A stretch of DNA of 64,000 nt from Rubripirellula sp. (GCA_965216875.1 OZ244207.1:4928001-4992000); one strand, 5' to 3'. Positions 20,605-37,762 are shown, numbered from the stretch's first letter. Notes: generated by a model not told the origin, from the letters alone. Translations and numbers: made by a program.

Positions 20605-20639
20605 CTCACCCCATCACTCGAGCAACGCTTCATCCCTGC

Positions 20640-20765
20640 TGCCTCCTCTCACACACCTCTTCTCTCACGCATCCTCTTACGCCCGCTTTTTTCTGTCCCC
20701 CATCTTTCTGTCCCTCTTCCATCCTTCTTTCTGCCCACCTTTTTTCTGCCATTCTTTTCTCCTCC
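20640..20765. repeat. Pyrimidine-rich tract with TTTCTG(T/C)C repeats
   Basis: TTTTCTGTCCCCCATCTTTCTGTCC..TTTCTGCC..TTTTCTGCC seen directly. An inverted copy (21/24 identical) lies at 17731-17754. Confidence 0.65.
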
Positions 20766-20847
20766 TAGTCCTGCGGACTGATTGCCGTCGTGTCGCTATC
20801 CCATTGGAAACGGGTTTCAACACTCTGATGGAAAGGGGAAATGGGCG

Positions 20848-21246
20848 ATGGCTTACGTGTTCTTGGCGACCACGTTGCTTTTTGCTGGCTCGACCACTTT
20901 CCTTGCCATTGCGTTGTGTCGTCGCTCAACCGGGCTGAGAAAGACGAGCCAGAAGCAAGAGATGGCCGACCGGCAACTTCGTGCAACTCGACTTGAGTAC
21001 GAGAAATACGCGGCTCATACCGGACGGCTGAAATCGATCACCGAGCTCGACCGCTACATCGCTTCGCTGAAGGAGCTGGTCGGTCGGTTTGAATCCATTC
21101 AGTCTCTCGACCATCTCCTCGTTCAGCGGAAGTCGGACCTACAGCAAGCGGAAAAGCTACTGGACGAGCTTCGTGGAGATGCGATTTGTTGCAATGATCA
21201 CACAAAGGGGCTGCCAAATGGCGGAGTTCGATCGCATTCAGACTGA
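20848..21246 (+). CDS. Hypothetical membrane-anchored coiled-coil protein
   Basis: N-terminal hydrophobic helix followed by heptad-like charged helices. Confidence 0.55.
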   Translation: MAYVFLATTLLFAGSTTFLAIALCRRSTGLRKTSQKQEMADRQLRATRLEYEKYAAHTGRLKSITELDRYIASLKELVGRFESIQSLDHLLVQRKSDLQQAEKLLDELRGDAICCNDHTKGLPNGGVRSHSD

Positions 21247-21417
21247 TGACAAACTTGCCGATCCGACTCCCGACTGGGAGGGGTTTCGTCGGTCGAATTG
21301 GGTTGGTCTGCAAAGAAGTTTTTTGACTTGACGAACCGGTATAAACCGACCAACGTATACCTCAGCTGTCCTTGATTGGACAAAAGGCCACCTTCCCCAC
21401 TTGCTTTTAGCGTCTTC

Positions 21418-21843
21418 ATGGCCCCGGCAGCCCGCCACATTATTGTCAGCCTCCTGTGCGGCATGATCGCTTTCGGTCATGCTCCCGCTTGGCTGCATGT
21501 TGCAGGTTGTGAGCACGGAAATCACCTCGTCGAGGCTTCGACCTATCGCCCACAAGACGACGCTTGCTGTTGCCACCATGGCCATGACCACCAAGCCTCG
21601 GAAGCGGAAGAGGGTGAGCCGAATCCAGCGTCCCGGGGTCATCAACATCCTCATGGGCACGATTCAGACACCTGCGCAATTTGCCAATCGCTTGTAGCTC
21701 CGACTGGCGTCAAGCTTGATCTTGATCCCGTCGTGCATGATGAAGGCTTGGTTGCGGTTGCTGCGATTGCTGAACTTTCAGCACCGGCCCCAACACTTCG
21801 CTCCATCCCTCAGCCTCGTGGACCGCCTGCGCTCAACGCGTAG
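21418..21843 (+). CDS. DUF2946-like His/Cys-rich exported leader protein with C-terminal RGPP motif
   Basis: Hydrophobic N-terminus, CCCHHGHDH, HQHPHGHDSDTCAICQ (CxxC), and PQPRGPP four residues before the stop. Confidence 0.85.
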   Translation: MAPAARHIIVSLLCGMIAFGHAPAWLHVAGCEHGNHLVEASTYRPQDDACCCHHGHDHQASEAEEGEPNPASRGHQHPHGHDSDTCAICQSLVAPTGVKLDLDPVVHDEGLVAVAAIAELSAPAPTLRSIPQPRGPPALNA

Positions 21844-21929
21844 AGCCTCTGGTCACGATCGATGAGCTCCCTTGATGCGTTAAAGCGAAAGGGTGCTCAC
21901 CGACTTTGCCTGGACTATTGAACCAATTG

Positions 21930-22005
21930 GTCCCGCCTCGCGCGGTTCTGTTGGTCACGGTCCGACCAAACCCGATCAGCTGTTCCCGCGTGGCGGGGCT
22001 CTTTT
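21930..22005 (+). promoter_or_regulatory. Structured element (long stem, inner hairpin, short U tract) in the leader of the tad operon
   Basis: GTCCCGCCTCGCG pairs with CGCGTGGCGGGGC, with inner hairpin TTGGTC/GACCAA, followed by TCTTTT. Confidence 0.45.
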
Positions 22006-22260
22006 GCCAACCTGAAGCTTGAATCACACGCTTCAGTTCGGTGTTGTGGGGCGTGCGATCCGTCGGATGAGACGTTCGCAAAAAGAAGGAAACAATTCGA
22101 GGGTGGGTGATCAATGTGTCATAGCTTGTTGCTTCGACATGGCGAATCATCCGAATCGCTTTCGACTTCGCGCAGTCTTTGCTGGCCGCTGCTGCGTGGG
22201 GAACTTGGTCAGGCGGCTAATTCAACTCCAACTCGTTTTTCCCATAAGTGAGAAACAACT

Positions 22261-22608
22261 ATGCGTAAGATGCTTCGCAACAAGAAGGGTCAAGGTCTTG
22301 TCGAGTACGGTCTGATCATCGCCGGTGTTGCACTGATTTGTGCAGCTGCCGTTTCGGTTTTCGGACACAAAACCAGCGATTTGATCGGTGCCGTCGCAAC
22401 GATCCTGCCTGGTGCCCATGCAGATGACAACGGCCCAGTTGTTAGCGGCAAGCTGATCGAAACCACCGGTGCTGACACCGGCGCAATCGCTCTGGACGCT
22501 GCGACCATCCTTGCAAACACCGACACCGGTCGTTTGGACAACAACGTCTTCGGTGCAGCAACTGCTGCTGGTGGCGACGGATTCGGCGGCTTGATCCTCG
22601 AGCCGTAA
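22261..22608 (+). CDS. flp: Flp-family type IVc pilin (long form)
   Basis: KKG/QGLVEYGLIIA class III signal and Flp motif (G, E+5, Y+6), hydrophobic helix, extended C-terminus. Confidence 0.92.
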   Translation: MRKMLRNKKGQGLVEYGLIIAGVALICAAAVSVFGHKTSDLIGAVATILPGAHADDNGPVVSGKLIETTGADTGAIALDAATILANTDTGRLDNNVFGAATAAGGDGFGGLILEP

Positions 22609-22636
22609 GCCTGACCCATTTGCCAAGATTCGCAAG

Positions 22637-22667
22637 CCACGCACGGGGGACAACCACCGTGCGTGGC
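22637..22667 (+). terminator. Stem-loop downstream of flp
   Basis: GCCACGCACGG...CCGTGCGTGGC inverted repeat. No strong U tract, so possibly an mRNA stabiliser. Confidence 0.5.
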
Positions 22668-22698
22668 GATTGCGTTTCTGGCGAAGCGTTTTCAGTCA

Positions 22699-23124
22699 AT
22701 GATGTTCTACGCGATTTCGGTCATCGTTCTGCTACTTCTTGCGTTTGCCACCTTCTGTGACTTTCGCACGAGGGAGATCCCGGATTGGATCTCGATTGCG
22801 ATCGCATTGGTCGCGATCGTCAGCTCCGCGATGGGGTACCTCGGGCTCTCCTTGCCATTGGCCCTCACCGGTGGCGTTCTTGGGCTCCTGGTCGGCTATC
22901 TCCTGTTTCGATATGCCCAACTTGGCGGGGGTGACGCGAAACTGATTGCAGCACTTGGACTGGTTGTAGGGCCCGTCGGGATCCTCATTGTCCTGTTTGG
23001 AATGGCCCTTGCTGGCGGCGTTTTGTCGTTGGTTGCGATGCTTCGCGGTCAACGTGACTACGCCTATGTCCCAGCCATCACCGTCGGTTTTGTAGGATAC
23101 ATCGGTCTGGTTTCCCAGATATGA
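22699..23124 (+). CDS. cpaA: Prepilin peptidase (A24) TadV/CpaA
   Basis: DFRTREIPD and LGGGDAKL aspartate motifs, multiple TM, directly after flp. Confidence 0.93.
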   Translation: MMFYAISVIVLLLLAFATFCDFRTREIPDWISIAIALVAIVSSAMGYLGLSLPLALTGGVLGLLVGYLLFRYAQLGGGDAKLIAALGLVVGPVGILIVLFGMALAGGVLSLVAMLRGQRDYAYVPAITVGFVGYIGLVSQI

Positions 23125-23156
23125 ATTCGCTTCCGTTCTCCAGATGGATGACTAAG

Positions 23157-23630
23157 ATGTCAAAGAACCTCATTGCTTTGCCGATCGCCTGCATCACCCT
23201 CGTCGCAACCGCCTTGGCTCCGACCGCCAACGCGGACGACCACGCTGGCATGAAAAAGGAGCACCAAGCGGCTCATCGGCAACACGATCAGTGGGCTGCC
23301 GAGCATGCCAAATGGCGTGCTGAACATATGCGTGCCCTGGCACTGATTGCAAAATTACAGGCACGTATCTACGAGCATGAGGCAGAGCTGATTGAGCATG
23401 ACGAAGAGATTCGCGCTCATGAAGATCATGCCATGCACCATGGCGAAGAGATCGAAGCTCACGAAAAGCACGGCCACGATCACGATCACAACGCGCTCGA
23501 GAAAGAGCACGCTGATTTTAAGGCGAAGCATAAGGCAATGGCTCAAAAACATGACTCCGTCAAATCGGGTCACGAAGAGCTACACCAGTTGCTAAGCAAG
23601 TTGACGAAGTTCTTGAAGGCCGAGAAATGA
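23157..23630 (+). CDS. Secreted His-rich helical protein with heptad-spaced histidines (putative metal-binding)
   Basis: Sec signal ending ANA. 22 His in about 131 mature residues, mostly at 7-residue spacing. Confidence 0.85.
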   Translation: MSKNLIALPIACITLVATALAPTANADDHAGMKKEHQAAHRQHDQWAAEHAKWRAEHMRALALIAKLQARIYEHEAELIEHDEEIRAHEDHAMHHGEEIEAHEKHGHDHDHNALEKEHADFKAKHKAMAQKHDSVKSGHEELHQLLSKLTKFLKAEK

Positions 23631-23911
23631 ACCCCCGCTTTGGACGCATCCGTCGCGGTCAATCGCTTGTCGAATTCGCCGTCGTTGCTCTCGTCTTGTA
23701 CATGATCCTGGCAGCGATCTTGACATTCGGACATGCGATCTATGCCGCGCAAGGCTTACAAACCGCGGCGGATCTGGCGGCCAAAGAAGACACACATGCT
23801 CCGCTGCCTACGGATGATTCAATCGAATCGGCGGCAAGCTCTCAGGGCAACGCGACGGCGTCTTATGTCACAACGATGGTCGCCGCGAAACACCAACGCT
23901 CCTATCACTAA
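23627..23911 (+). CDS. Short TadE-like pseudopilin (possibly truncated)
   Basis: RRG/QSLVEFAVVALVLY class III signal. ATGA overlap with the His-rich gene. Only 94 aa. Confidence 0.75.
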   Translation: MNPRFGRIRRGQSLVEFAVVALVLYMILAAILTFGHAIYAAQGLQTAADLAAKEDTHAPLPTDDSIESAASSQGNATASYVTTMVAAKHQRSYH

Positions 23912-23982
23912 CGATTCAATTCACGCGGCATGGAGGCGAGCACCGTTCACAAGGAAGTAGTCAAACAAAAACGATCAGTACG

Positions 23983-26508
23983 ATGGCACAACGAAACTAC
24001 CGCAACTCTCGTCGCTCGCGATTGCCAGGTCTGCTACTTGCCGGCGGCGGCTTGTTTGCGCTAACCCTGTTCGGAATTGTCGGAACACTCTGGCTTGCGG
24101 GCGTTCCCCTAAACCCATTCGCTGCATCGCAAAAGGAAGATCCGTACATGGTTCGGATCCCAATCAATGCGCGACCGATTCCCGCTTACAGTCGCGTCGA
24201 TCGAACGCACTTGCTCAATCCCGCAGACCGAAGCTTGATGTTCCAACGTATTCCACCGCGGGCAGCCCTGGGGATGGCAGTCGTTGGTGTCGACCAAAGC
24301 GGATCTCATGTCGAAGATCGTGTTGTTGATGTAAAAAACGTCAATGACGAAGTGGTCTTTGTCGTTGCTGGCGGTCGCGAAGTGCGTCAAGCACAAACCT
24401 TCACCCTTGGTGGCGCCATTCTGAACATCAATGCGATCATTGGTCGAGTTGTAAAAGCAGACAAACGTGCCGGTCTCGGATTCCAAGAAAGCACGTTCTT
24501 TCCGCAAGGCACACCCGAGGGACTCGCCGGTGCGACCCCAGAAGGAATGCGCGCGATCACGCTCGATGCAACTCGCTTGACCGGTGTCCACTCACTCAAC
24601 GCGGGCGACATGATCGACTTGTTGGCCAGTGTTCCAACAGATGACGTTGATAACGACGACGAGTCAAACGAAAGCGAAGTCGAACTGCTCGCCCAAAACG
24701 CTCACGTGCTACGTCCGGTCTATGTACGCAACGAAGTGACTTCATCGGCATCGCTGATGAACGGACAAACAACGCAAAACCTGCCCAAGTACGAAGTGGC
24801 GATTGCCGTGGCGGCAGACGATGTGATTCGATTGCAGACGGCATTGAACCAAAGTTTGTCGATCACTTGTGTCGCCCACTCCATGAAACCAACGGACGGC
24901 AGCGAACAAAAGCCACCAGCCCCGGATCATCTCGTTCGTGTACCTGTCACGGTGCGCCCGATTCTGGCTTATCAAGTTGTCTCGCGCGATGCGTTTGTGA
25001 GCCCTGCCACTCGTTCACTAAAGACTGCAACGATTCCGCGTCAATTGGCCGATCGACTCGGTGCGATCACATCCGTCGATCAGGCGATTGGTGCGATCAC
25101 CCGCCAAGACATCCCCGCCGGTCGCTATCTCCGCCAATCGGACCTGCTCAAAGGGCCTCCCACAAACCAGCAATCGGCCGACAACATGGTTGAATCCAGC
25201 TTGGACGGATTCAACCAATCTGCCGACGGCAAACGATTTGTCGCAATGGTCCAGCAACCACAACAGCCGGCACCGGCAGCCACGGCGGTTGGCGACCGAC
25301 CTGCGATCAGCCGCTTCATCCCCGCCGGTCGCACCGCGTTTGCGATCCCACTCAATCGTGTTTACGGCGCCGAGCATCTTCAAATCGGCGATTCGATCGA
25401 TCTTCTGGCGAGCTTTTCTCTCGAACGACTACGAGATGAAGAAGAAACGGAAACGCGCCCCGACGGGACGGTCATCGTTCGCAAGTCCGAATCACTGACT
25501 CCCCGCACGACGCGTCGTAGCTGGGAAGAATCCTTTGGCAATCGAGCCGAACCTTGGTTTGTGGCAACCGGCGCGATCGTCGTCGCACCCGTCGGTTTTC
25601 CGGCACCGGCGGCCGCACTTCGTGCGATCGAGTCGGATACGGAAGTGTCGCGACCCTCCCAGCGAGACAAAACCTTTGAAGGCCCACCCGTCATCATTGC
25701 GGTAGAAAACCGCGATGTTGAAACCGTCGCCACCGCACTGGCGACGCGTGATGCACTGTTCACGGTTGCGTTCCATGCGGACGAGAACAACGTCGCGAGG
25801 CCGCAAGACAAGACCATCGCCATCGCCTCGGAACCGATGGATGCGTACAGCCCACTCAGTGAAACCTCGTGGCAAGGTAACCGCCGCCGTGTCGCAACGC
25901 GCGTCGTCTCGTCAGGCAACCCGCGATTCCAAGACGCTTTGACGCCCCAACAGTTGCAGAGCTATTTCGGCCGCACGTTGAGTGTCGAAAAGAACAACGG
26001 CGACTTCTTTACACCCGCTGACTTTATGCCTGAAGGGGCAGGGCAGGGGATCGGAGCCTCCGTTCGCCAAGGGTACACCTTGCTACCCGTAGCAGATCGC
26101 GATATTGAAGGAATTGATTCGTTCATAAGAAACGACACCGTCACGATCATGATCCGTGCCGTTTTCAAATCGCAACTCGCCCGCCAAGTCAATGCCGAAG
26201 ATGGCGTCGCCGCCTCTTTTGTGGTCGCCGAAACGGTCCGAGTCGTTCGTGAATCGGTTGGTGGCCAATCGATCATCGAAGTTCAAAACAAAGACCTCGC
26301 AAAACTTCAAGCTGCGATGGCACGATCGCTCACCGATCGAGAAGAAATGCGAGATCGATCGCACTTGGTCGCCGTCGGTTCCGTTCCCACCAACGACACC
26401 ACAAGTTCCGATTCGAAGATCGCTCCGTTTGACCCACTGACTGGCGTCAAAACGACTCAGATCATCATCGGTGGCGAGCGGAGCGTGAAGGTCTTTGGAG
26501 GTCAATGA
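23983..26508 (+). CDS. cpaB: CpaB/RcpC-like pilus assembly protein with three tandem SAF+RcpC modules
   Basis: N-terminal TM, with repeated motifs (RPIPAY/RPILAY/EPMDAY; GMRAITL/GRTAFAI; GDMIDLLAS/GDSIDLLAS). Confidence 0.8.
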   Translation: MAQRNYRNSRRSRLPGLLLAGGGLFALTLFGIVGTLWLAGVPLNPFAASQKEDPYMVRIPINARPIPAYSRVDRTHLLNPADRSLMFQRIPPRAALGMAVVGVDQSGSHVEDRVVDVKNVNDEVVFVVAGGREVRQAQTFTLGGAILNINAIIGRVVKADKRAGLGFQESTFFPQGTPEGLAGATPEGMRAITLDATRLTGVHSLNAGDMIDLLASVPTDDVDNDDESNESEVELLAQNAHVLRPVYVRNEVTSSASLMNGQTTQNLPKYEVAIAVAADDVIRLQTALNQSLSITCVAHSMKPTDGSEQKPPAPDHLVRVPVTVRPILAYQVVSRDAFVSPATRSLKTATIPRQLADRLGAITSVDQAIGAITRQDIPAGRYLRQSDLLKGPPTNQQSADNMVESSLDGFNQSADGKRFVAMVQQPQQPAPAATAVGDRPAISRFIPAGRTAFAIPLNRVYGAEHLQIGDSIDLLASFSLERLRDEEETETRPDGTVIVRKSESLTPRTTRRSWEESFGNRAEPWFVATGAIVVAPVGFPAPAAALRAIESDTEVSRPSQRDKTFEGPPVIIAVENRDVETVATALATRDALFTVAFHADENNVARPQDKTIAIASEPMDAYSPLSETSWQGNRRRVATRVVSSGNPRFQDALTPQQLQSYFGRTLSVEKNNGDFFTPADFMPEGAGQGIGASVRQGYTLLPVADRDIEGIDSFIRNDTVTIMIRAVFKSQLARQVNAEDGVAASFVVAETVRVVRESVGGQSIIEVQNKDLAKLQAAMARSLTDREEMRDRSHLVAVGSVPTNDTTSSDSKIAPFDPLTGVKTTQIIIGGERSVKVFGGQ

Positions 26509-26631
26509 TGATGAGTGCATCGAATCATCCGAGACGCATTCACCAGTCTGTGATCGAACTCCGAATTCGGCGGGCAACACCGAATCCACTTTTTGATTTC
26601 CGCCACGTGAACGTTCTTGAAGGAGCAGAGA

Positions 26632-27447
26632 ATGAATAAGCGCCGCAAAGGCCAAGCTTTGGTTGAGTTCGCTCTTGTTGGTTTTGCGTTAACGGCTCTC
26701 CTAATGGGCATTATCGGTATCGGTACGATGCTGATTCAGTCGACGGCTACCGCGTCGGCTTCGATTTCGGCGAGCATGATTTTTGACCTTCAGGTGGAAA
26801 AAGAAGACGTCAACAACGTCGAAGAGGTCTATGCCGCACTTCGAACGCTCAACCTCTACAACGATGCTCACTTGATTCTGGAGCCAGCCGATTACTTTGC
26901 CGAGACGTTCAACGGTGGTCCACTGGCAAGCCTTAACCGGCGGATGTTGCCGCTGTACCAATTCGATCGAGACCGAAACGTCTACCGGTACCCTGGGGCA
27001 CCTGCGTCGTACAACAACGGAAATGCAGTTTTAATCCCCCGCACGGCTCGTGACACAAGCGAGACCATCACGGCTTGGTATCGACCCGTTGAAATTGAAT
27101 TCGATCCGAACGTCACCGATCAGACCGTTTTGAACGTAACACTCAACATGGCGTCGCAACCCGCGACCCTGCTTTCCTATCCGACCGACGCACTGGGCAG
27201 GACGGTTGGGCTCCCACTGGTTGCCGATGATGGGACGGTCAACGTTCAAGCCAACCTCCCGGATGGATTTAATTTGCAGGGAGCGGGCGTGGTGAACTCG
27301 CCCTTCGCATCGACCAATCGGGGGCAATTCGGACTTGGCGAAATGAAGAACTTCGGCACGAATGTTCGGCCGTTTCGACGTGTTTTCTTTCACCGAGGGA
27401 CGTTCCGACTGAAGCCTGTTGAGGAACAAAATGGAACTCAACCTTAG
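26632..27447 (+). CDS. TadE/TadG-type pseudopilin
   Basis: RKG/QALVEFALV class III signal, AAGGAG RBS. Confidence 0.85.
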   Translation: MNKRRKGQALVEFALVGFALTALLMGIIGIGTMLIQSTATASASISASMIFDLQVEKEDVNNVEEVYAALRTLNLYNDAHLILEPADYFAETFNGGPLASLNRRMLPLYQFDRDRNVYRYPGAPASYNNGNAVLIPRTARDTSETITAWYRPVEIEFDPNVTDQTVLNVTLNMASQPATLLSYPTDALGRTVGLPLVADDGTVNVQANLPDGFNLQGAGVVNSPFASTNRGQFGLGEMKNFGTNVRPFRRVFFHRGTFRLKPVEEQNGTQP

Positions 27448-27559
27448 CGGTCATTCACCCTTTTTGCGGGCACCGCATCCATCGCTCCGAGATCAGGCGC
27501 GAGCTCAAAACAACGATATCGACGGTGGCCTCTTGGTTGCCGTGAACAGGTGAAGAGAG

Positions 27560-28816
27560 ATGTCAATCACGGCAAACATTTTGGTCTTTAGTGCGGACGC
27601 GAAGATCGCCGAAGAAGCGAACTTGGCGTTCAACGCGCTGCCTCAAACATCGGCTCGCTATCGAATCGTTGAAAACACAACGGCCTTGTTCGAAGCCCTT
27701 CGCAACCGACCTGTGTCACTGGTGCTTGCGGAGTTTCCCGAGGATCCGCGTGAGCTTCTTGAATGGGTACGACAGATTCAATCAGTCTCACCCAAAACGA
27801 AGATCGCCGCGATCTTGCCGCAAGAGGGCTTTTCCGAACAAAACAACGAATCGGCGCTGTTGATCGATGCGATGCGGTGTGGCGTTTGCGACTTCCTGAA
27901 ACGCCCCTTCTCGACAGCAGATCTGCAGCGGCTAATTCAGATCGACGCGGACAATCAAACCACCGCCGCACAGGCGGGCTCACCTGGCGCTGGCCGCGTG
28001 GTTTCGTTCATCAGCAATAAAGGAGGCGTCGGCAAATCGACCCTGGCAACGAACACGGGTGTCGCGATTGCAAGACGCGGTCAACAAAGTGTTCTGTTGA
28101 TCGACGGCTCGATTCAAATGGGCGTCGCCGCAGCGCTACTTGACCTGCAACCCGAAGCCACTCTGACCGACGTCGCGCGCGAAGTCGATCGGCTTGACCC
28201 CACGATGATTCGACAAACGGCCGCCGTCCATTCAAGCGGGCTGCACTTGATTGCCGCGCCCGCCGATGCCGTCGAAGCGATGGAAATCGACGACCTGTTG
28301 ATGGCTCGCATTTTGACAGTCGCACGGCAAACCTATGACGTCGTGATTGTCGACACCTTTCCAATGTTCGACCGCGTCGTGATCGCGGCTCTCGACCTAA
28401 GCGATCGTGTGTACGTGGTCCTCGAAAACGTCGTCCCCACTTTGCTTGGTGGCGTCAAGCTGCTTAGCGTTCTCGATCGAATCGGCTATCCGGCTGCCCG
28501 ACAATCGATCGTGCTGAACCGTCAACAACGTGTCACCGGAAGCTTGTCGGTCGATGATGTTGCCGATCGGATGGGACGCGACATTGATCATGTCTTGCCT
28601 TTTGACAAAAAGGTGGTCGCTGCTGCCAACTGTGGCGTCCCCATCGCGATGGCTCCGATCCGCCTGGGCGGGTTCAGCCGAGCGCTTGCGGGACTCGCCG
28701 ATGATGTTGCAGGCACGGTCGATTCCACGGCATCGCGCGTGGAAATGAACGAATCGAGCCTGCTTGCACCGGACGAATCGCCATTGGAAGCCACCTCGTT
28801 GGAGGACAACCAGTGA
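27560..28816 (+). CDS. cpaE: CpaE/TadZ (atypical receiver domain + MinD/ParA-like ATPase)
   Basis: Receiver-like N-terminus (DFLKRP), KGGVGKST, VVIVDT. Confidence 0.92.
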   Translation: MSITANILVFSADAKIAEEANLAFNALPQTSARYRIVENTTALFEALRNRPVSLVLAEFPEDPRELLEWVRQIQSVSPKTKIAAILPQEGFSEQNNESALLIDAMRCGVCDFLKRPFSTADLQRLIQIDADNQTTAAQAGSPGAGRVVSFISNKGGVGKSTLATNTGVAIARRGQQSVLLIDGSIQMGVAAALLDLQPEATLTDVAREVDRLDPTMIRQTAAVHSSGLHLIAAPADAVEAMEIDDLLMARILTVARQTYDVVIVDTFPMFDRVVIAALDLSDRVYVVLENVVPTLLGGVKLLSVLDRIGYPAARQSIVLNRQQRVTGSLSVDDVADRMGRDIDHVLPFDKKVVAAANCGVPIAMAPIRLGGFSRALAGLADDVAGTVDSTASRVEMNESSLLAPDESPLEATSLEDNQ

Positions 28817-30306
28817 CCGATTCGAATCGTGATCCCAAATCAACTCGCTCGGCTCGCGAACTGTTTGCACACGCAAGTTTGCGTTTGCCAGAAAACCGAG
28901 TCCGACGAGAAACGAGTCGCTCGGGAAGCAAACCGTTTTCAGACTCCTCGTCGCTTGACGCGCGACCAGGCAGCGCATCGTTTGCATCGGTCAAAACGGC
29001 GATGCACACGCAACTGCTTGAAGATCTCGACCGTCGCGATCGCATCACCGCAACCGAAGAAGAATTGACGGACCTGGTGCGTGACTTTGTTGCGGATGCT
29101 CTTGAAACTCAAGACTGGCCGCTCAACGACCTTGAACGTCGACAACTCGTTGACGATTTGATCGAAGAAACAATCGGCGTCGGTCCGCTCGCTCCACTGC
29201 TTGCCGACCCGGCCGTGACCGACATTTTGGTCAATGGCCCCTACACAGTATTCGTCGAACGGTTCGGACAACTCGAAGAAACCGATGTGCGTTTTCGGGA
29301 TGACGAACACCTTGTGCGCATCATTGGCCGCATCGCCGCTCGCGTCGGTCGCCGAGTCGATGAAAGCTCGCCGATGGTCGACGCTCGATTGCCCGATGGC
29401 AGCCGCGTCAACGCCACGCTTCCGCCGGTCACAATTGATGGGCCAACACTTTCGATTCGGCGTTTTGGTCGACGGCGATTGCGCTGCGATGACCTGATGC
29501 GATTGGGAATGTTCTCGCCTGCCATGCACACGTTCTTGCAGCTCGCCATTCGCGGCCGCGTGAACATGATCGTATCGGGCGGAACGGGCTCCGGAAAATC
29601 GACTCTCTTGGGCGCCATCGCGGAAGCCATCTCGGATAGCGAACGGATCATCACGATCGAAGACGCTGCCGAATTGCAACTCGACCAGCGTCATGTCGTA
29701 CGAATGGAAACGCGTCCCCCCAACATCGAAGGGCAAGGGCAAATCGTTGCGCGCGACCTCGTCGTCAACGCGCTTCGGATGCGACCGGACCGGATCATCG
29801 TGGGTGAAGTTCGCGCCGCCGAAGCACTCGACATGATGCAAGCGATGAACACTGGACATGACGGGTCGCTGACGACGATTCATGCCAACAGCCCTCGCGA
29901 TGCGGTCTCGCGACTCGAAACCATGGTGCTGATGGCTGGGCTGGAACTTCCCAGCCGCGCGATTCGCGAACAAGCTGTTTCGGCGATCGACATCATTGTG
30001 CAAGTTCGCCGCTACGAAGATGGCGTTCGACGCGTCCAATCGGTCTCGGAACTCGTCGGCATGGAAGGCGACACTCCGCAACTTCAAGAGATCTTTCGCT
30101 TTGTCTCGACGGGCAAGACCAAGCGACGTATCTCTGGTGAATACGTGGCAACGGGCGTGGTCCCGCGAATCGCTACACGGCTGCGTGAAAACCATGTCGA
30201 TGTGCCCATGGAATTGTTCCAGTCCGGTCCACGGTCCTTAGCTGGCACAGGTTTCGACCCAGACGATCGAGGCGTCGATGATTCGGAGCGCGACGTTCGA
30301 TGGTGA
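28813..30306 (+). CDS. cpaF: CpaF/TadA pilus ATPase
   Basis: [48 protein letters not shown]. Confidence 0.97.
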
Positions 30307-31190
30307 TCCTAAGTGTGATCGCACTCTGGTCTGTCATCGGATTGGTTGCGATCGGAACCTACCGACTGCACGTCAGTCGCCAACAAACGCTCGATCGATT
30401 CGTCGAAGCGACAGAGAGTTGGGCCGGCGGCGCTGGCACAAACGCGACCGCAAGAGAAGAGGAAGCGCCAACAGCATATTCCGCGCGTCGGCTATCTCGG
30501 CCCTGGATCTGGGCCCCTTGGGCAATCGGCGTCGGCATCGGTGTTTCCGCGTGGTGGATCTTTGGCTGGCCAGGCCAATACGTCTTGGCCATCGGCGCGG
30601 TCGTATCACTTCTGCTTAGCCAGGTTGAAGGTTTCTTATACATCCGTCACATCGCCAAACTCGAACGGCAGCTCGCCGACGCAATCGATATCATGGTCGG
30701 CGCGGTCAGTGCGGGTGCGGCTGTAGGACCAGCGATCGATTCAGCAACCGTTGAAACCGACAAACCTCTGAAACCTTACCTGCAAGAACTCTCGGGTAGG
30801 ATCCGCTTAGGCGATGACCCGATTGCTGTCTTCCGTTCGCTTGCCGATCGCGTCCCACTCGAAACGTTCATGCTCTTTTCGGCGTCGATGTCCGTTCACT
30901 ATGAAGTGGGCGGACGCTTGGCGCCAACGCTCGCCACGGTCGGGCGCACAATTCGCGACCGAATTGAAATCGCAAGACGCATCCAATCGAACATCGCGCA
31001 GTCACAATTCAGCACCATTGCCATCTTGGGTTTGATCTATCTGATCGCCGTGATCGTCTGGCGCAACGGCCCCGAGCCGATGGAGGATTTTGTGACGTCG
31101 ACGGTCGGTAGCTGGGCTGTTGCCGGATCGATCGTGTTTCAAGCGGTAGGAATCGTTTGGATGAACCTCATTTCGAAACCAAAGTTCTAG
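30300..31190 (+). CDS. tadB: TadB inner-membrane platform protein (T2SS F family)
   Basis: QLADAIDIMVGAVSAG, GGRLAPTL, TM pattern, position after cpaF. Confidence 0.9.
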   Translation: MVILSVIALWSVIGLVAIGTYRLHVSRQQTLDRFVEATESWAGGAGTNATAREEEAPTAYSARRLSRPWIWAPWAIGVGIGVSAWWIFGWPGQYVLAIGAVVSLLLSQVEGFLYIRHIAKLERQLADAIDIMVGAVSAGAAVGPAIDSATVETDKPLKPYLQELSGRIRLGDDPIAVFRSLADRVPLETFMLFSASMSVHYEVGGRLAPTLATVGRTIRDRIEIARRIQSNIAQSQFSTIAILGLIYLIAVIVWRNGPEPMEDFVTSTVGSWAVAGSIVFQAVGIVWMNLISKPKF

Positions 31191-31205
31191 ATCGGATCCG
31201 TTTCG

Positions 31206-32129
31206 GTGACACTCCTGACCCAGTTATTGCTATTCGCCGCAGTGATGATCACGCTGCTGTGCCTTGCGGCATGGGCGGTGATTCATTTACTGGGGCAACA
31301 ACGCACTTTGGACCGTTGGTTTCGCGACCACGACTCAAATCCGTCCGACAACGGAAACGAATCACCTCGTGGCTGGATCGGCAGATGGCTTTTTCTAGCT
31401 GGATACCGAACACAAATAGCACCGATCGTCTTCGTGATCACAACGATCGCGTGCATTGTCATCGGCATCGGATCGGCATCGCTTTTTGTCGCCTCAGGAC
31501 TGCAATCGGTGATGGAAGAGACCGTCGTGCTCGTACCAGGTGGTGTGGGCGAGACCTTCTTGCCCGTCGTCTGGGTCGCGCCTTGGATCATCGCCATCTT
31601 GCTGATTTGCTTGCCGCTGACGATCGTGCGTTCAGCGCGACGTCGACGCGTCGCAATGATCGAACAAGACCTGCCGCTGGCGATGGAATTGATGGCGACC
31701 TTGAGCGAAGCGGGACTCAGTTTCGATTCGGCTTTGCTGCGGGTTTTGAAAACGCGTTTGTCAGGCCGACCACTGGCTGACGAACTTCAGATCTATCAGG
31801 CCGATCTGCTTTCGGGCAGACCACGAATTGAATCCCTTCGCCGCTTGAGTAGTCGCATTCGCGTCGGCTCCGTATCGATTCTTGTCTCAGCGCTCGTGCA
31901 AGCGGAACAAATGGGGATGGGTATCTCTCGTGTCTTGCGAACACAAGCCGATGATATTCGTGCCCGCCGAAGAGAAAAGGCGATCGCGTTTGCCAACTCG
32001 CTGCCAGTGAAGCGTCTCTTCCCGTTGGTGATTTGCTTTTTGCCAGGGCTCTTCATTTGGACACTCGGTCCAGCATTTATTCAGCTCTTCAAATTGACCG
32101 AAACCTTCACTCGTGGCGGCGGGCTTTGA
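31206..32129 (+). CDS. tadC: TadC inner-membrane platform protein
   Basis: LPLAMELMATLSEAGLSFD, LVQAEQMG, VKRLFPLVICFLP. Confidence 0.92.
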   Translation: MTLLTQLLLFAAVMITLLCLAAWAVIHLLGQQRTLDRWFRDHDSNPSDNGNESPRGWIGRWLFLAGYRTQIAPIVFVITTIACIVIGIGSASLFVASGLQSVMEETVVLVPGGVGETFLPVVWVAPWIIAILLICLPLTIVRSARRRRVAMIEQDLPLAMELMATLSEAGLSFDSALLRVLKTRLSGRPLADELQIYQADLLSGRPRIESLRRLSSRIRVGSVSILVSALVQAEQMGMGISRVLRTQADDIRARRREKAIAFANSLPVKRLFPLVICFLPGLFIWTLGPAFIQLFKLTETFTRGGGL

Positions 32130-32476
32130 TGGCATCTCTCATCGATGAGGAAACGGGGCAAGTCCTTTGGAACGACTTGCTGCTTGCTGATAACTTTGCC
32201 CGTCGCGCGGTTGGATTGCTGGGCAAGAAGTCGCTGGAGTCTGATCAAGCGATCCTGATCCGGCCCTGCAGTTCCATCCATACGATCGGAATGCGAATGA
32301 CGATCGGCGTCGCGTTCTGTGACGCCGATGGCAACGTCTTGCGAGTCACACCCGCGGTTCGCCCATGGCGCCTTCAATTTGGACCACGAGGCTCGAAATT
32401 CGTCATCGAGTGGTCTTCCGACCACTCGCCCATGATCGATGTCGGCCAGCGTGTACGAGTCGTCAATCGTCCCTAG
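32129..32476 (+). CDS. DUF192 family protein
   Basis: ADNFARRAVGLLG, PCSSIHTIGM, FVIE. TGATG coupling to tadC. Confidence 0.88.
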   Translation: MASLIDEETGQVLWNDLLLADNFARRAVGLLGKKSLESDQAILIRPCSSIHTIGMRMTIGVAFCDADGNVLRVTPAVRPWRLQFGPRGSKFVIEWSSDHSPMIDVGQRVRVVNRP

Positions 32477-32480
32477 CCAA

Positions 32481-32592
32481 GTTCGTAGTACCGGCTTCAG
32501 CCGGAATCGTGCACAAGAGAACAGACAGACTTCCGCCTGAAGGCGGGACTACAAACGACAGCGACCAAATCAGTTCGTAGTACCGCCGGAAA
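32481..32592. repeat. GTAG-type REPIN unit plus truncated left arm, upstream of RAYT
   Basis: GTTCGTAGTACCGGCTTCAGCCGGAA...TTCCGCCTGAAGGCGGGACTAC. The next unit starts 92 bp later at 32573. Confidence 0.92.
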
Positions 32593-32676
32593 TTCATTTG
32601 ATGTTATTGACACTGAGGTATCGCGTGAGTCCACTGCGCATTCATTGGCGTACAAACGATGAGGGGCAGCCGCATT

Positions 32677-33273
32677 ATGTACGAATACCGCAAGTGGACC
32701 GAAGAACAACAGTCAAACGCGTTACTTGAGCGTGTCGCTCATGGACTTCCGCAGCACAGCCCGCCTCACGTCCCACAACCCCATGCGTTTCGCCTCATTA
32801 CCGGCGTTTGTTTTGAACACAAACCCATTCTCCGCTCAGCGCAGAGAATGAACTGGTTCGAGCAAGAACTGCTTCAACATCTCCGTCAGCAGTCTCTCGA
32901 CGTCTCAGCATGGGTTGTTCTTCCAAATCACTACCACGTGCTCGTAAAGATCCCGGACATCGAGTTGTTCGCGAAATCGCAGGGCCGGCTTCATGGTCGA
33001 ACATCATTCTTAATCAACAAGGAAGACTGCAAACAGGGTCGCCAGGTTTGGTTTCGGTTCTCTGACCGCGTGATGCGCAGCGAGAGGCACTATTTCACTA
33101 CGCTGAACTACATTCACAACAATCCTGTCAAACACTGTTACGTCGACAAATGGGGTGAGTGGGCGTTTTCGAGCTATCACTGGTATTTGCAAGAGAGGGG
33201 CAGGGCCTGGTTGGTTGATCTTTGGCGTGAATTTCCAGTTCTCAACTACGGCGATACCTGGGACTCCTTGTAG
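32677..33273 (+). mobile_element. REP-associated tyrosine transposase (RAYT, Y1 HUH family)
   Basis: AWVVLPNHYHVL (HUH), VW..DRVMRSE, YIHNNPVK (catalytic Tyr). Flanked by REPs. Confidence 0.93.
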
Positions 33274-33278
33274 CCCTT

Positions 33279-33592
33279 GACAGACTTCCGCCTAAAGGCG
33301 GGATTACGAACGGCGGCAGCCAAATCAGTTCGTAGTACCGGCTTTAGCCGGAATCGAGCGCAACAGAACAGACAGACTTCCGCCTGAAGGCGGGATTACG
33401 AACGGCGGCGGCCAAATCAGTTCGTAGTACCGGCTTTAGCCGGAATCGAGCGCAACAGAACAGACAGACTTCCGCCTGAAGGCGGGACTACAAACGGCGG
33501 CGACCAAATCAGTTCGTAGTACCGGCTTCAGCCGGAATCGAACGCAACAGAACAGACAGACTTCCGCCTAAAGGCGGGACTACAAACGGCGG
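33279..33592. repeat. Tandem array of 92-bp REPIN units (3.5 copies)
   Basis: Unit starts at 33328, 33420 and 33512, plus a right-half copy at 33279. Each unit has two inverted GTAG/GTAA-hairpin arms. Confidence 0.95.
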
Positions 33593-33755
33593 TCAGACTT
33601 CTGGGCTGGGAAAATGTAGCGATTGCGGGCTAAAGTCGGAGCTAAATCGTGCCGATTACAACGGTTGTTCCATGGTCGGACCAATTCCGGTTGATGGTGC
33701 GCCGTTCGGGCAGGCCGCAGCGGGATTCCACAATCATCCGCTCACACGATTGCTC

Positions 33756-35663
33756 ATGATGTCACCCGTACATCAATTCATTCGACTCACCGCTATGCGA
33801 TGCGCCGCGGTGATGCTTGGATTGCTGCCACTCGTAGCGATTGCCCAAGATCGCAGTCGCCTCCCTGAAATCTCAGGGGGTGGCCAACAACCAAACGCAA
33901 GTGCGCCCGCCTCCCGTCTCCAAGCCGGCTTTCCTCGCGAGTTGATCTTGCCGGAACCAAGCCAGGAGGCGAAGGACCGCGCAAGCAGGTTCGTTCCTAC
34001 CACAATCGACCCGGAATTGCCGCTTCGATTGGTGGTGGGCCGTCCCAAAGTGCTGCAACTCGCCGACACGCCAAAGCGGATCTACACCCCCACTGACTCG
34101 ATCATTCGCACCGAAGTGATTGACGAACAAAGTGGCAAAGAGATCGCCGTTACGGGCCTGGAAACGGGAGCGACAACGCTGATTCTTTGGTTCGATGACC
34201 CTACTGCTGATGGTGGACAGGTCTCGATCGCGTACGAAGTCCAAGTGTTTGCTGACCCACTTTACGCTCGTCCAGTCGAAGACATTCAAGGCGAACTGAA
34301 TCAGAAATTCCCCAACAGCTACATCGAACTTGATGAGATCGCCAACCGCTTGATCATTCGGGGTCAGGTGCCCGACGTGATCGAGATGTCGCAAATCCTC
34401 AATGTGTTGCTGGGCACACGCAACAATCGCCGCGGTAATCGTCAAGGACCGCCCGAGCAATCGATCAACATTGACAATGCGAGCCGGTTTGAACGCACAG
34501 GGGCTCGCCTCGACGCCGAGCGTGATAACGAATTCGCAAATCGCCTGATTGACCCGCAAGCGCTCGCTGCCGCCGGCATCATCAATCAACTCAAGGTCGT
34601 TGGCGAACAACAGGTCATGTTGAAAGTGACTGTCGCAGAGGTCAACCGCAGTGCAGCTCGCAGCATTGGTTTGAACTTTGGTGTTGAGAATAGCGCTGGC
34701 GACACCGTCTTTCAAACGCTAACTGGCAATTTGATCCAGAACCTTGGCAACAACAATGCCGGCCAAACCGGTGCCAACATCCTTGCATCGTTTGACATGG
34801 GGCAAGTTCAGTTGGCAATCGAGGCGTTGCGTCAACTGAATCTCTCGCGCACACTCGCAGAGCCAAACCTTGTCACCATGAATGGCGAACCGGCCGACTT
34901 CCAGGCTGGCGGGCAATTCCCAATTCCTGTGATCAGCAGCGGTGGCGTTGGCAACAACCTGCAAGGCGTTTCTTTCGTCCCATTCGGCGTCCAGCTTCAA
35001 TTTACCCCGTTCATCCAAGAACGTGACGTGATTCGGTTGCAGATGAATGCGGAAGTAAGTACACGCGACGAATCGCTCGGCACCAGTATTGGTGGCGGCG
35101 GTGGCGGAACACAGGTATCTGGCCTTAACAGTCGCAACTTTTCAACCACCGTCCAACTTCGTAGCGGACAAACGGTGGCCGTCGCAGGCCTGCTGCAAAC
35201 CAACTACGGTGCAAGTACGGAACGCGTCCCCTTTTGGGGCGATCTTCCGATCATCGGTGCGACCGGTGGGGTTAATCGCTCAAGTAGCGGCGAACAGGAA
35301 CTCGTCATCTTGGTAACGCCGCACTTGGTAGCGCCCGTTGATGCTTGCCAGGGACCGGCGATTCCCGGCGGCGACCTCTACGAGCCAACGGACATCGAAT
35401 TCTACATCTCGAACCGATTAGAAAGCCGACGCTCAAAAGACTATCGCGCATCCGTTCGCACGGACTACGGACGCCAATCACGCGCCGAACATTGCTGCCC
35501 TGAACGATTCTTGATCGGTGACATCGGCCCCACCGATCGTTGCTGCCCGCGACCGTTCTCAGCACCTCACCAAGCCGTCCCCCAAACTCGTCCAAACACG
35601 AGTGCTGGCGGAGCAACCCATCAGCAGTTGAGCGACTACATCGAGGGCCATACTGGTGAATAA
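33756..35663 (+). CDS. cpaC: CpaC/RcpA secretin
   Basis: QQVMLKVTVAEVNRS, LAEPNL, AGGQFPIP, FGVQLQFTP, VPFWGDLPIIG, ELVILVTP; start uncertain. Confidence 0.95.
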   Translation: MMSPVHQFIRLTAMRCAAVMLGLLPLVAIAQDRSRLPEISGGGQQPNASAPASRLQAGFPRELILPEPSQEAKDRASRFVPTTIDPELPLRLVVGRPKVLQLADTPKRIYTPTDSIIRTEVIDEQSGKEIAVTGLETGATTLILWFDDPTADGGQVSIAYEVQVFADPLYARPVEDIQGELNQKFPNSYIELDEIANRLIIRGQVPDVIEMSQILNVLLGTRNNRRGNRQGPPEQSINIDNASRFERTGARLDAERDNEFANRLIDPQALAAAGIINQLKVVGEQQVMLKVTVAEVNRSAARSIGLNFGVENSAGDTVFQTLTGNLIQNLGNNNAGQTGANILASFDMGQVQLAIEALRQLNLSRTLAEPNLVTMNGEPADFQAGGQFPIPVISSGGVGNNLQGVSFVPFGVQLQFTPFIQERDVIRLQMNAEVSTRDESLGTSIGGGGGGTQVSGLNSRNFSTTVQLRSGQTVAVAGLLQTNYGASTERVPFWGDLPIIGATGGVNRSSSGEQELVILVTPHLVAPVDACQGPAIPGGDLYEPTDIEFYISNRLESRRSKDYRASVRTDYGRQSRAEHCCPERFLIGDIGPTDRCCPRPFSAPHQAVPQTRPNTSAGGATHQQLSDYIEGHTGE

Positions 35664-36219
35664 ACGAATTCAACAAACACACTTTGCGGTCGCGATTGCC
35701 ACCGTCCTTTCCATCGCGGGTTGTTCACATCACAAAGGCGTGCTCAACGTCGACGCATGTGCGGACATCCCTTGTGGAGCCATTCCGGAGCCGCCTGGTT
35801 CAAAGATCTGCGCATGGGAAACGATCCAGGCAACCCAGGCTGCAGCCGATCAATCAGTCCTTTACATCTCAGATTTCGTCGGCACAACGACACAGTTATC
35901 ACCTGCCGCGACCCAGCGAATCGGGCGGCTTGTTCAAGCCGGTGCGGCCGAAAATTTGCCATGGGTCATCGAGTCCTCGGACGACTCGGATCTTGATGCA
36001 ACACGCGCCAATGCGTTAGTCGAAGCACTTGCCGAACTCGGTGTGGCGCCCATCGATGTAACCATCGGAACGCCGGCGGCTCTTGGACTGCGAGGCCCGC
36101 AAGCCGAGCGAATCGCTGGCAACGCTGGCAGAAACCGAAACTCGATCTCCAATTCACGAGCACGTACCGGCGGTCGCAATGGCGGTTTTGGCTTCGGTGG
36201 ATTTGGGAGGGGATTCTAG
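35656..36219 (+). CDS. Lipoprotein associated with the secretin (CpaD-like position)
   Basis: Lipobox SIAG-C, overlaps the secretin stop, Gly-rich tail. Confidence 0.75.
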   Translation: MNKRIQQTHFAVAIATVLSIAGCSHHKGVLNVDACADIPCGAIPEPPGSKICAWETIQATQAAADQSVLYISDFVGTTTQLSPAATQRIGRLVQAGAAENLPWVIESSDDSDLDATRANALVEALAELGVAPIDVTIGTPAALGLRGPQAERIAGNAGRNRNSISNSRARTGGRNGGFGFGGFGRGF

Positions 36220-36962
36220 TGAGCATGCAAATGACTCTTGCGAAGACGCTCACACTGGCTGGCTGTCTTTGCGTATCGGTCGGAGTCGGATGTCGGAGCA
36301 TCGACAATCCCGTGCGTCCATCGTCATTGCTTTCGCTTGACGCCAAGTCGCCAAGTAATGCACCGCCACTGGACAATCGTTACAACGAACGTCTCGTCTG
36401 TATCAAGACAGCGAAAACGGTCGCCGAAAAAGGTTATTCCGGCGAAGCGATCCAACTCTACGAGAAGGCTGAAAAGCTCGACGCAAGCGAACCGGCACTC
36501 GATCTTGAGTTGGCGCCCCTTTATGCGGAATCTGGCCAATCGGAAAAAGCGATCGCTCGCTACCGCAAGGTGATTGCCGCTGGTAACGCTGCGGCCGATG
36601 TCTACAACAACCTTGCCTGGACACTTCTCGAGAACGGCTTGCACAACGATGCTCTGCAAACATGCCAGCAAGGTTTGGCTCGCTGGGCTGACGACAAGCG
36701 TCTGCAGACGACTAACGCAGTGACTCATTATCACCTTGGCAACCGAGATCAGTCACTCGAAGCCTTCACGAGTCTCTACGGCACTTCCGCAGCGCATCAC
36801 AACCTCGCCATCCTCGACACCGACGCAGGTAACCTTGACATGGCTCTTCGGCATGCCGTCGCCGCTGCGGAGCTTCCCAATTGCGCCACCGAATCGATTG
36901 AGCTTCGCGACTCGCTTCGAACTCAGATCGCTTCGATCCAATCGCAAACGCTCAAACGCTAG
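36219..36962 (+). CDS. TPR lipoprotein (TadD/pilotin-like)
   Basis: Lipobox GVG-C, TPR motifs (AIARYRKV, VYNNLAW, AHHNLA). Confidence 0.85.
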   Translation: MSMQMTLAKTLTLAGCLCVSVGVGCRSIDNPVRPSSLLSLDAKSPSNAPPLDNRYNERLVCIKTAKTVAEKGYSGEAIQLYEKAEKLDASEPALDLELAPLYAESGQSEKAIARYRKVIAAGNAAADVYNNLAWTLLENGLHNDALQTCQQGLARWADDKRLQTTNAVTHYHLGNRDQSLEAFTSLYGTSAAHHNLAILDTDAGNLDMALRHAVAAAELPNCATESIELRDSLRTQIASIQSQTLKR

Positions 36963-37018
36963 CCCACCGAGTCGACGAAAACCGCCTACAATGATCGCTT
37001 TCAAAGCGACTGGGTGGC

Positions 37019-37741
37019 GTGTTGGACCGACTCAAGACAATCGTCGAGCAACCTGAAACGAAGTGGGGACGTGCGTTCGCACTCTCGATTCAGTTTCTGA
37101 TCGTCCTTTCGCTCATCACGTTTTCGCTCGAAACACTTCCTGACCTTTCGCCCAAAGTGCGTCTGCTGCTTCGAACAGTGGAAGTGGTCACGGTTGTCAT
37201 TTTCACGGTCGAATACCTGTTGCGACTTTGGGTTGCCGATCATCGGCTGCGTTTTGCCACCAGTTTCTTTGGCATCATCGATCTGTTGGCAATTGCTCCG
37301 TTCTACCTCTCGCTTGGTGTCGACCTCCGCACGGTACGAGCGTTTCGACTGCTACGTCTCTTTCGCATCTTCAAACTCGCTCGTTACAGCCGGGCGGCTC
37401 GACGTTTTCATCGAGCACTGGTGATCGCGAGGGAAGAACTCATCTTGTTCGGGTTTGTCGCGTTGATCGTGGTCTATTTGGCGGCGGTAGGAATCTATTA
37501 CTTCGAACGCGACGCTCAACCTGACAAGTTTGCGTCGGTGATCCACAGTTTGTGGTGGGCTATGGTGACGCTCACAACGGTTGGCTATGGAGATGTTTAT
37601 CCCATCACCGCCGGCGGCAGGTTTTTCACGTTCATCGTGCTGATCGCGGGACTCGGAATCGTGTCCGTCCCCGCAGGACTGCTCGCCTCGGCACTCTCGA
37701 AAGCGCGAGAGTTGGACATGCAAGAGAATGAAGACGCCTAG
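37019..37741 (+). CDS. Voltage-gated-type potassium channel (Ion_trans)
   Basis: S4 RAFRLLRLFRIFK, pore WWAMVTLTTVGYGD. Confidence 0.95.
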   Translation: MLDRLKTIVEQPETKWGRAFALSIQFLIVLSLITFSLETLPDLSPKVRLLLRTVEVVTVVIFTVEYLLRLWVADHRLRFATSFFGIIDLLAIAPFYLSLGVDLRTVRAFRLLRLFRIFKLARYSRAARRFHRALVIAREELILFGFVALIVVYLAAVGIYYFERDAQPDKFASVIHSLWWAMVTLTTVGYGDVYPITAGGRFFTFIVLIAGLGIVSVPAGLLASALSKARELDMQENEDA

Positions 37742-37762
37742 CAGAACGCGCTGCGTCGACAA

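Follow-up and report, generated by a model that had tools for sequence, protein, structure and literature searches.

A Rubripirellula Tad pilus locus headed by a conserved leader open reading frame of CruR/CutF-like design and associated with a new histidine-rich protein family

The DNA analyzed here, which we call the window, is a 64-kb stretch of the 8.26-Mb genome of Rubripirellula sp. (GCA_965216875.1 OZ244207.1:4928001-4992000). Window positions 21418-36962 hold a complete tad gene cluster for a Tad/Flp pilus with all genes on the + strand, as determined by translation and Pfam searches. The cluster is headed by a small open reading frame (ORF) with a CxxC...RGPP layout, and the co-oriented tad locus with such an ORF at its head is therefore as the preliminary description of this DNA had it. 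Every Tad component class was recovered by Pfam within the one cluster and the gene order was kept in relatives. We conclude that the Tad system and the conserved leader module are both real, and that a new family of His-rich proteins is associated with the locus.

The leader ORF (21418-21843, + strand) encodes 141 amino acids (aa), including 14 His and 7 Cys, and is DUF2946-like, of the CruR/CutF type, by its motifs, their spacing and a weak match to the Pfam profile PF11162. It is laid out as a hydrophobic N terminus, a His/Cys-rich stretch, the sequence HDSDTCAICQS, a 44-residue spacer, RGPP and a four-residue tail. CAIC occupies residues 86-89 and RGPP residues 134-137, with the stop four residues on. 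The N-terminal hydrophobic stretch IIVSLLCGMIAFGHAPAWLHVAG, read from the sequence, is kept in 9 relatives, and W25, H27, V28, C31, H54, H81, D82, D84, C86, C89, Q90 and the RGPP were invariant in the leader and these relatives. CAIC lies inside an invariant HD.D.C..CQ, and AWLHV is invariant in the N-terminal membrane segment. The number of His residues in the relatives' leaders varied from 7 to 17. The CxxC-to-RGPP spacer measured 44 residues in six and 46 in three of nine leaders from four genomes, with tails of 2-4 residues, and its sequence was not conserved. Across 28 loci of the order the spacer ranged from 42 to 47 residues, most commonly 44, and the relatives' leaders ended in RGPP or RAPP, 0-9 residues before the stop. 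A distance that stays fixed while the spacer drifts is expected of a ruler between the ribosome tunnel and a sensing site and not of a folded protein. A six-frame search of the genome with the pattern C..C-(38-52)-R[GA]PP-(0-9)-stop returned exactly 4 ORFs and all 4 were leaders. The R-[GA]-P-P codons varied at synonymous sites among 57 distinct leaders, indicating that selection acts on the peptide. By its design the heading ORF belongs with the CruR/CutF-type leaders, although its Pfam score does not place it there.

A promoter-like motif, TTGACGAACC-N16-CGTA (21328-21357, + strand), lies about 60 nucleotides (nt) 5' of the leader start, and its AAC...CGT layout is one that we take to resemble extracytoplasmic function (ECF) sigma promoters. 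The motif was found before 10 of the 57 distinct leaders, always 323-422 nt 5' of the CxxC codons. Its strict pattern occurred four times in the genome, twice before leaders, and inspection of the other two matches (6126424 and 4479481) revealed no sigma factor or metal gene there. A sigma-70 promoter scan of 20500-24000 returned 0 sites.

On the 3' side of the leader lies a GC-rich hairpin with the apical sequence GGUCCGACCAAACC and a U-rich tail (21929-22008, + strand), 86-165 nt 3' of the leader stop and with a terminator-like match at 21984-21998. Its minimum free energy was -41.4 kcal/mol with a z score of -4.35, and 0 of 200 shuffles were equally stable. The hairpin core motif was present 3' of 14 of the 57 leaders, with a U-run 3-4 long. 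In an alignment of 13 of these 14 motif-bearing sequences (L036 was left out) 90.7% of cells were paired, compared to 37-49% with the partners slid. Covariation was also evident, with 25 double-change cells as compared to 4-13 and 10 of 21 pairs changed on both sides, a result reached by 0 of 500 shuffles. The sequence predicts this element to be a terminator or attenuator. We also considered it as a repetitive extragenic palindromic (REP) element tied to the REP-associated tyrosine transposase gene nearby; this was rejected because the 14-mer core has only 2 copies in the genome, each 3' of a leader. A search of 19000-38000 against Rfam at E up to 1 returned nothing at the hairpin and one chance-level match elsewhere, and counts of C minus G along the gaps showed no consistent C-rich, G-poor stretch of the composition of a Rho site. 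The gap between leader and flp is 417 nt here and 354-480 nt in most loci. Within it the block GGTCAGGCGGCTAA (22195-22215), about 55 nt 5' of flp, is kept in three genera and could be a flp promoter, operator or processing site.

Pairing of the leader with flp was assessed in a sample of 301 genomes of the order, in which an Flp search was positive in 22 genomes and retrieved 30 loci. Fifteen of these loci, spread over 14 of the 22 genomes and five families, had a leader on the same strand 175-480 nt 5' of flp; among the 15 leaderless loci, four had less than 900 nt of upstream sequence and some were extra tandem flp copies. The pairing was seen in three further genomes of the relatives sample. 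These counts are not independent because several of the genomes are closely related. Leader identity dropped to about 30% among paired loci, and the gene order around the pairing varied, with the His-rich gene described below lying inside, before or divergent and, in one genus, the leader lying 3' of a DUF1559 gene. A leader profile search found 28 places in 23 of the 301 genomes. DUF1559 prepilin-type genes came next downstream at 14 of them, Flp genes and DUF58-like genes at 6 each and a PilD-like peptidase gene at 1, and at 1 the next gene had no assignment. Directly after 21 of these 28 leaders, then, came a prepilin-type or prepilin-peptidase-like gene. At the phylum level the profile matched in 10 of 401 genomes and outside the order none of the matches stood before flp.

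Two more leaders were found at a second locus of the same genome, at about 6.185-6.188 Mb (L022, G000:C1:6184664-6188052). It reads, in order, porin gene, promoter motif, leader, hairpin, PilD-like gene, low-His leader, Flp paralogue and tetratricopeptide repeat (TPR) gene. The PilD-like protein (575 aa) has the A24 N-terminal domain only, the low-His leader lies 216 nt before the Flp paralogue, which is 88% identical to the window Flp, and the locus is without pilus assembly genes of its own. That the leader module also precedes DUF1559, PilD-like and TPR genes marks it as a portable control unit. A further group of leaders (L023 at G000:C1:1132000-1152000, L020, L025, L073, L075 and L077) has a 46-residue spacer and a 2-residue tail and heads a conserved operon of a DUF58-like gene, a transglutaminase-like gene, a MoxR ATPase and an ArsP_1 permease. 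The closing permease bears a weak likeness to a Cu/Zn efflux transporter (71 bits against a cut-off of 300 in G057). At L083 (G260:C45) and L084 (G156:C2) the leader and hairpin stand ahead of a DUF1559 gene and small ORFs, and further along come an ExbB/MotA-like gene and a gene for a CobN-like chelatase of 1400 aa; this gene string is possibly a metal-handling operon around a pilin-like protein. Porin-like genes adjoin the leaders in the second locus, and leaders from other classes of the phylum (L122, L124-L126) have downstream genes that were judged porin-like by their N-termini only.

The pilus genes themselves, all on the + strand, begin with the Flp prepilin (22261-22608), a 115-aa protein that matched Class_IIIsignal at 30.2 bits and Flp_Fap at 19.1 bits, under the cut-off of 32.2 for the latter. 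It carries the processing motif KKGQG/LVEY, a G/xxxxEY-type site, and is 90% identical to the Flp of a same-genus genome. An invariant LPGAHx[DE]DN directly follows the hydrophobic helix and is kept in eight orthologues, and the C-terminal tail is rich in Gly and Asp; the LPGAHx[DE]DN motif could be a cation-binding site. A dedicated A24 peptidase is encoded next as CpaA/TadV (22663-23124, Peptidase_A24 61.9 bits). Beyond the His-rich gene (23121-23630) follow a TadE-like pseudopilin shortened to 94 aa (23627-23911, TadE 38.4 bits), a CpaB/RcpC protein of 841 aa with repeated SAF/RcpC regions (23983-26508, Pfam RcpC and SAF; 64.4 bits against TIGR03177, under its cut-off of 71) and a second TadE-like pseudopilin of 276 aa (26617-27447, TadE 24.0 bits). 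Next come a CpaE/TadZ-type ParA/MinD ATPase (27560-28816, AAA_31 and CbiA), the CpaF/TadA secretion ATPase (28813-30306, T2SSE 219.2 bits) and the platform proteins TadB (30300-31190, T2SSF 49.1 bits) and TadC (31206-32129, T2SSF 51.5 bits). A DUF192 protein gene (32129-32476, PF02643 47.6 bits) holds the same position in the tad loci of relatives by synteny. The CpaC/RcpA secretin (33672-35663, Secretin 138.9 bits and T2SS-T3SS_pil_N) is followed by a 187-aa lipoprotein gene without a family (35656-36219) and a TadD-like lipoprotein gene with matches to TPR families (36219-36962). Translation showed a lipobox-like IAGC/LAGC in both of these final ORFs, and both genes are kept 3' of cpaC in three other genomes.

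Comparison with relatives also showed where the window locus has changed. A REP-associated tyrosine transposase gene (32659-33273, + strand, NF047646 85.7 bits against a cut-off of 80) separates the DUF192 gene from cpaC in a gap of 1.2 kb. This gene occurs once in the genome. The same-genus locus does not have it, and DUF192 and cpaC lie 72 nt apart there; the gene is an insertion and stands outside the pilus system. The first TadE-like protein, 94 aa long here, has 307 aa in its orthologue from the same genus (G002). In relatives the gene 3' of cpaB is TadG-like and encodes 337-409 aa; at that position the window has the 276-aa TadE-like protein, which resembles the relatives' first TadE. 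The pseudopilin set is rearranged in the window. Just 5' of the leader, a gene for a membrane dipeptidase (M19) lies between two OprB-family porin genes (16283-20604). A 132-aa ORF between porin gene and leader (20848-21246) matched no family, had no counterpart by tblastn in the locus of the same-genus genome and may be no gene. Elsewhere in the genome a diverged second tad-like set is split between two places, at about 6.48 Mb and 6.79 Mb on G000:C1; CpaC (32% identical) and CpaE (28%) lie at one of them and CpaF (48%) and TadC (31%) at the other.

The gene between cpaA and the first tadE-like gene (23121-23630, + strand) encodes an exported, helical, His-rich protein of 169 aa. The preliminary description had reported 22 mostly heptad-spaced His in this protein and its coupling to the pseudopilin, and both observations held. 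Thirteen of the 22 His have another His at +7, against an average of 3.4 after shuffling, and not one of 5000 shuffles got to 13. ATGA overlaps tie the gene to the following tadE-like gene and also to cpaA. Pfam and NCBIfam contained no family for it, a PDB profile search returned only a designed helix bundle (E 0.002), Foldseek against the PDB returned nothing below E 5 and the ESM Atlas only an unnamed planctomycete cluster. Searching 5.8 billion proteins produced 19 clusters. None of these has a name beyond hypothetical, and those with a label all come from Planctomycetota. On sequence grounds the protein founds an unnamed family found only in Planctomycetota. H48, W58, H107, H130, H137 and H151 are invariant in the family and H55, H100 and H103 nearly so, and these residues are mostly seven apart. 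AlphaFold2, run with a 13-sequence alignment, modelled a helical hairpin with helices at 40-117 and 123-168 and a mean predicted local distance difference test (pLDDT) score of 84.3.

The surroundings of the His-rich gene in other genomes point to pilus and metal genes. The gene lies inside the tad locus in 4 genomes (the window, G002, G013 and G248) and divergent, 1.0-2.8 kb from flp, in 4 more (G254, G260, G071 and G210). A Fur-family gene adjoins it in G254 and G057. In G071 and G210 it heads a string with a gene that passes the NCBIfam model for the ZigA zinc metallochaperone (605.2 bits against 600), and in G057 it lies 5' of the leader-DUF58-transglutaminase-MoxR-permease operon. Comparison may be made with zinc-starvation proteins, of which ZigA (COG0523) is one, and with ZinT and the ZnuA loops among the His-rich zinc binders of the periplasm. 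The window family shares the ZigA-type context, adjoining the ZigA-model gene and Fur-family genes in relatives. It differs from ZigA, ZinT and ZnuA in that there is no kinship in sequence or fold, the window protein being modelled as an all-helical hairpin with heptad His, many of them exposed on the helices. The protein would be made together with the pilus and is probably a metal-binding partner in the periplasm, either buffering metal or passing it on. The recurrence of this association, together with that of the leader-flp pairing, also means that orthologous tad loci do not lack both metal-related genes, the outcome that the preliminary description had named as speaking against its proposal.

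CruR (Bp2923), encoded upstream of bfrG in Bordetella pertussis, is the prototype of Pfam DUF2946 (Roy et al. 2022, PMC9426467). Both CruR and the window leader are small ORFs with a CXXC, a set distance of about 45 residues from there to an R-x-P-P motif of the arrest type and another 3-4 residues to the stop, and in both cases a long intergenic stretch lies ahead of the next genes. CruR is exported and the first cistron of its operon, and the window leader probably is too. The two differ in that CruR has RAPP where the window has RGPP, though the window's relatives also use RAPP, and in that CruR has a 162-nt gap with a Rho site whereas the window has 417 nt with a conserved hairpin and U-tail. 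CruR controls a TonB-dependent transporter, whereas the window leader precedes a Tad pilus and scores under the PF11162 cut-off. CutF, upstream of cutO in Rhodobacter capsulatus, is likewise a DUF2946-like leader that combines a Cys motif with a proline motif at the C terminus. It is exported, as the window leader probably is, and senses periplasmic metal during co-translational export (Ozturk et al. 2023, PMC9973294; 10.1101/2025.02.05.636593). CutF has CxxxC and PPP where the window leader has CxxC and RGPP, and acts over a short gap by melting a stem-loop that covers the next gene's ribosome-binding site, whereas the window hairpin is far from both genes. The 417-nt gap and terminator-like hairpin make a transcriptional mechanism of the CruR kind more likely than short-range melting of a ribosome-binding site in the manner of CutF.

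Taken by comparison, the best-supported reading is that the Tad operon is under a CruR/CutF-like stalling leader and that its expression is metal-gated, which we give slightly better than even chances. By analogy with CruR and CutF, we infer ribosome arrest, metal sensing and coupling to downstream expression as follows. Translation of the leader would arrest at the C-terminal RGPP of the nascent chain, whose Cys/His segment would by then have just emerged from the ribosome or passed into the translocon. A metal bound to this Cys/His-rich segment would alter the arrest, and the altered arrest would set the share of transcription that passes the terminator-like hairpin into flp and the pilus genes. 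Our low-confidence guess is that stalling occurs on the metal-free leader and allows transcription to continue, so that the pilus would be made when metal is scarce, because CruR works in this way and because the neighbors in relatives are of the zinc-starvation type. Zinc may be at least as likely as copper to be the sensed metal, and both the metal and the sign of the response are guesses. The metal context of the leaders themselves is consistent with such gating, as leaders elsewhere head operons with a Cu/Zn-efflux-like permease or with ExbB-like and CobN-like genes. Four sequencing runs under the same species label, presumed to be RNA, gave no coverage of 21200-24000, a result that speaks neither for nor against gating. 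The earlier interpretation of the locus as metal-switched is, as a whole, partly supported.

Several observations weigh against metal gating by a stalling leader. The PF11162 match covered profile positions 10-117 of 117 but reached only 18.0 bits (E 0.005) against a cut-off of 23.7, and one relative's leader before flp reached 21.5 bits; the assignment to DUF2946 in the preliminary description thus stands by its predicted export segment, CxxC, 44-residue spacer and RGPP and fails by Pfam score. In eight of the 22 Flp-bearing genomes no leader was seen ahead of flp. The hairpin begins 86 nt past the stop codon and is too distant for direct melting by a stalled ribosome. The 223-nt region folds into three separate hairpins with no evident switch, and a classical attenuator with alternative pairings found no convincing alternative pairing in this fold. 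Pairing of the hairpin loop with the RGPP codons (GGACCG with CGGUCC) was rejected, as these codons occur in only 2 of the 14 hairpin-bearing leaders. The 417-nt gap is long enough for flp to own a separate promoter, for which the GGTCAGGCGGCTAA block could be the candidate. The His-rich gene turned up in just 6 of the 22 genomes with Flp in the order sample, some members of its family have no signal peptide and are distant from pilus genes, and the window holds no Fur, ZigA or metal transporter gene.

Instead of a metal, the leader could sense the state of the envelope: as an arrest peptide of the SecM, VemP or MifM kind it would follow export, insertion into the membrane or the formation of disulfides in the periplasm and tune prepilin-type output to envelope capacity. 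The products of the genes that follow 21 of the 28 leaders all depend on membrane insertion, the N-terminal membrane segment with its AWLHV is unusually conserved and the CutF preprint models the CutF cysteines as periplasmic disulfides (10.1101/2025.02.05.636593). Secretion monitors such as SecM (RAGP) and the RAPP-type peptides cited in the CutF preprint likewise have a C-terminal R-A/G-P/G-P arrest motif and are exported leaders ahead of envelope genes, but they are without a Cys/His-rich segment or a fixed CxxC ruler and precede Sec components, not pilins. The His-rich runs of variable length and the Fur, ZigA-type, CobN-like and Cu/Zn-efflux-like neighbors point to metals, and both studied members of the family, CruR and CutF, sense copper. 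We consider export monitoring unlikely. There is a similarly small chance that leader and tad genes are separate transcription units, the hairpin being an ordinary terminator, flp having its own promoter and the leader product being a small membrane-anchored metal-binding protein that simply acts alongside the pilus genes or travels with them. A hairpin with a U-rich tail does look like an intrinsic terminator, and the length of the gap and the conserved block before flp would fit as well. Against this, CxxC and RGPP are held 42-47 residues apart despite the drift of the spacer and RGPP is always 0-9 residues from the stop, the U-tract is as short as in leaky terminators and neither CruR nor CutF was detectable as a stable protein in the published studies.

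The pilus might also be a metal-acquisition device, in which the fiber or the accompanying His-rich protein captures metal or a metal chelate outside the cell and brings it in. Proteobacterial leaders precede TonB-dependent receptors where pilin-type genes are found here, Flp has a long C-terminal part with an invariant LPGAHxDDN and the His-rich protein is translationally coupled inside the operon. Neither the locus nor the 64-kb window, however, has a gene for chelator synthesis or for an inner-membrane metal importer, and the His-rich gene is missing from most leader-linked tad loci. We regard acquisition as improbable, and the earlier suggestion that the pilus exports, displays or retrieves a chelator found no support; the window holds no chelator biosynthesis or uptake gene. 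A wider conjecture, for which we would also give rather long odds, is that in the Pirellulales prepilin-type fibers (Flp pili and DUF1559 pseudopilin-like proteins) replace TonB-dependent receptors under metal-sensing stalling leaders, and that the Tad pilus and its heptad-His periplasmic partner would take a direct part in capturing or handing over zinc or copper, beyond any role in attachment. That leader and tad genes are juxtaposed by chance or inherited synteny with no functional link is very improbable. The close relationship of several genomes would allow for it, but the pairing is found in five families with differing gene order around it and leader identity down to about 30%, and the leader pattern matches nothing else genome-wide. 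Metal-gated expression under a stalling leader is the reading that we favor.

The Cpa pili of Caulobacter and the Flp-Tad pili of Aggregatibacter are the reference Tad/Flp pili. The window locus shares with them the full component set from Flp through the TPR lipoprotein; it differs in that its Flp is about twice the usual length, its CpaB has 841 aa with repeated domains and its operon also holds the DUF192 gene, the leader ORF and the His-rich exported protein. To our knowledge, it is transcription factors that have been described as regulating Tad pili, and no leader peptide is among these regulators. A few homologues occur in Planctomycetes according to Roy et al. 2022, whose Table S1 lists a few planctomycete proteins with neighbors not given (PMC9426467). 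The downstream neighbors named by Ozturk et al. 2023 are metal efflux, TonB-like and chaperone genes, and 'pilin' appears there only as a signal-peptide class in a legend (PMC9973294). Outside the neighbor list of Ozturk et al. 2023 (their File S1), which our literature search did not cover, we found no account in print of a Tad pilus preceded by a DUF2946-type leader.

The locus thus presents a known kind of regulation wired to an unexpected target. The compact module of promoter motif, leader and covarying hairpin could be moved into reporters, where arrest, ligand and read-through are separately testable, and both the hairpin and the His-rich family are new to the family libraries searched. 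The same leader design before DUF1559 genes gives experiments a first point of entry to a protein family that is among the largest still unexplained in the phylum. Tad pili serve attachment, surface sensing and colonization in many bacteria. If the favored reading is true, a nascent-peptide switch before flp would be a new regulatory layer for these pili and would tie the sessile lifestyle of marine planctomycetes to the supply of trace metals.

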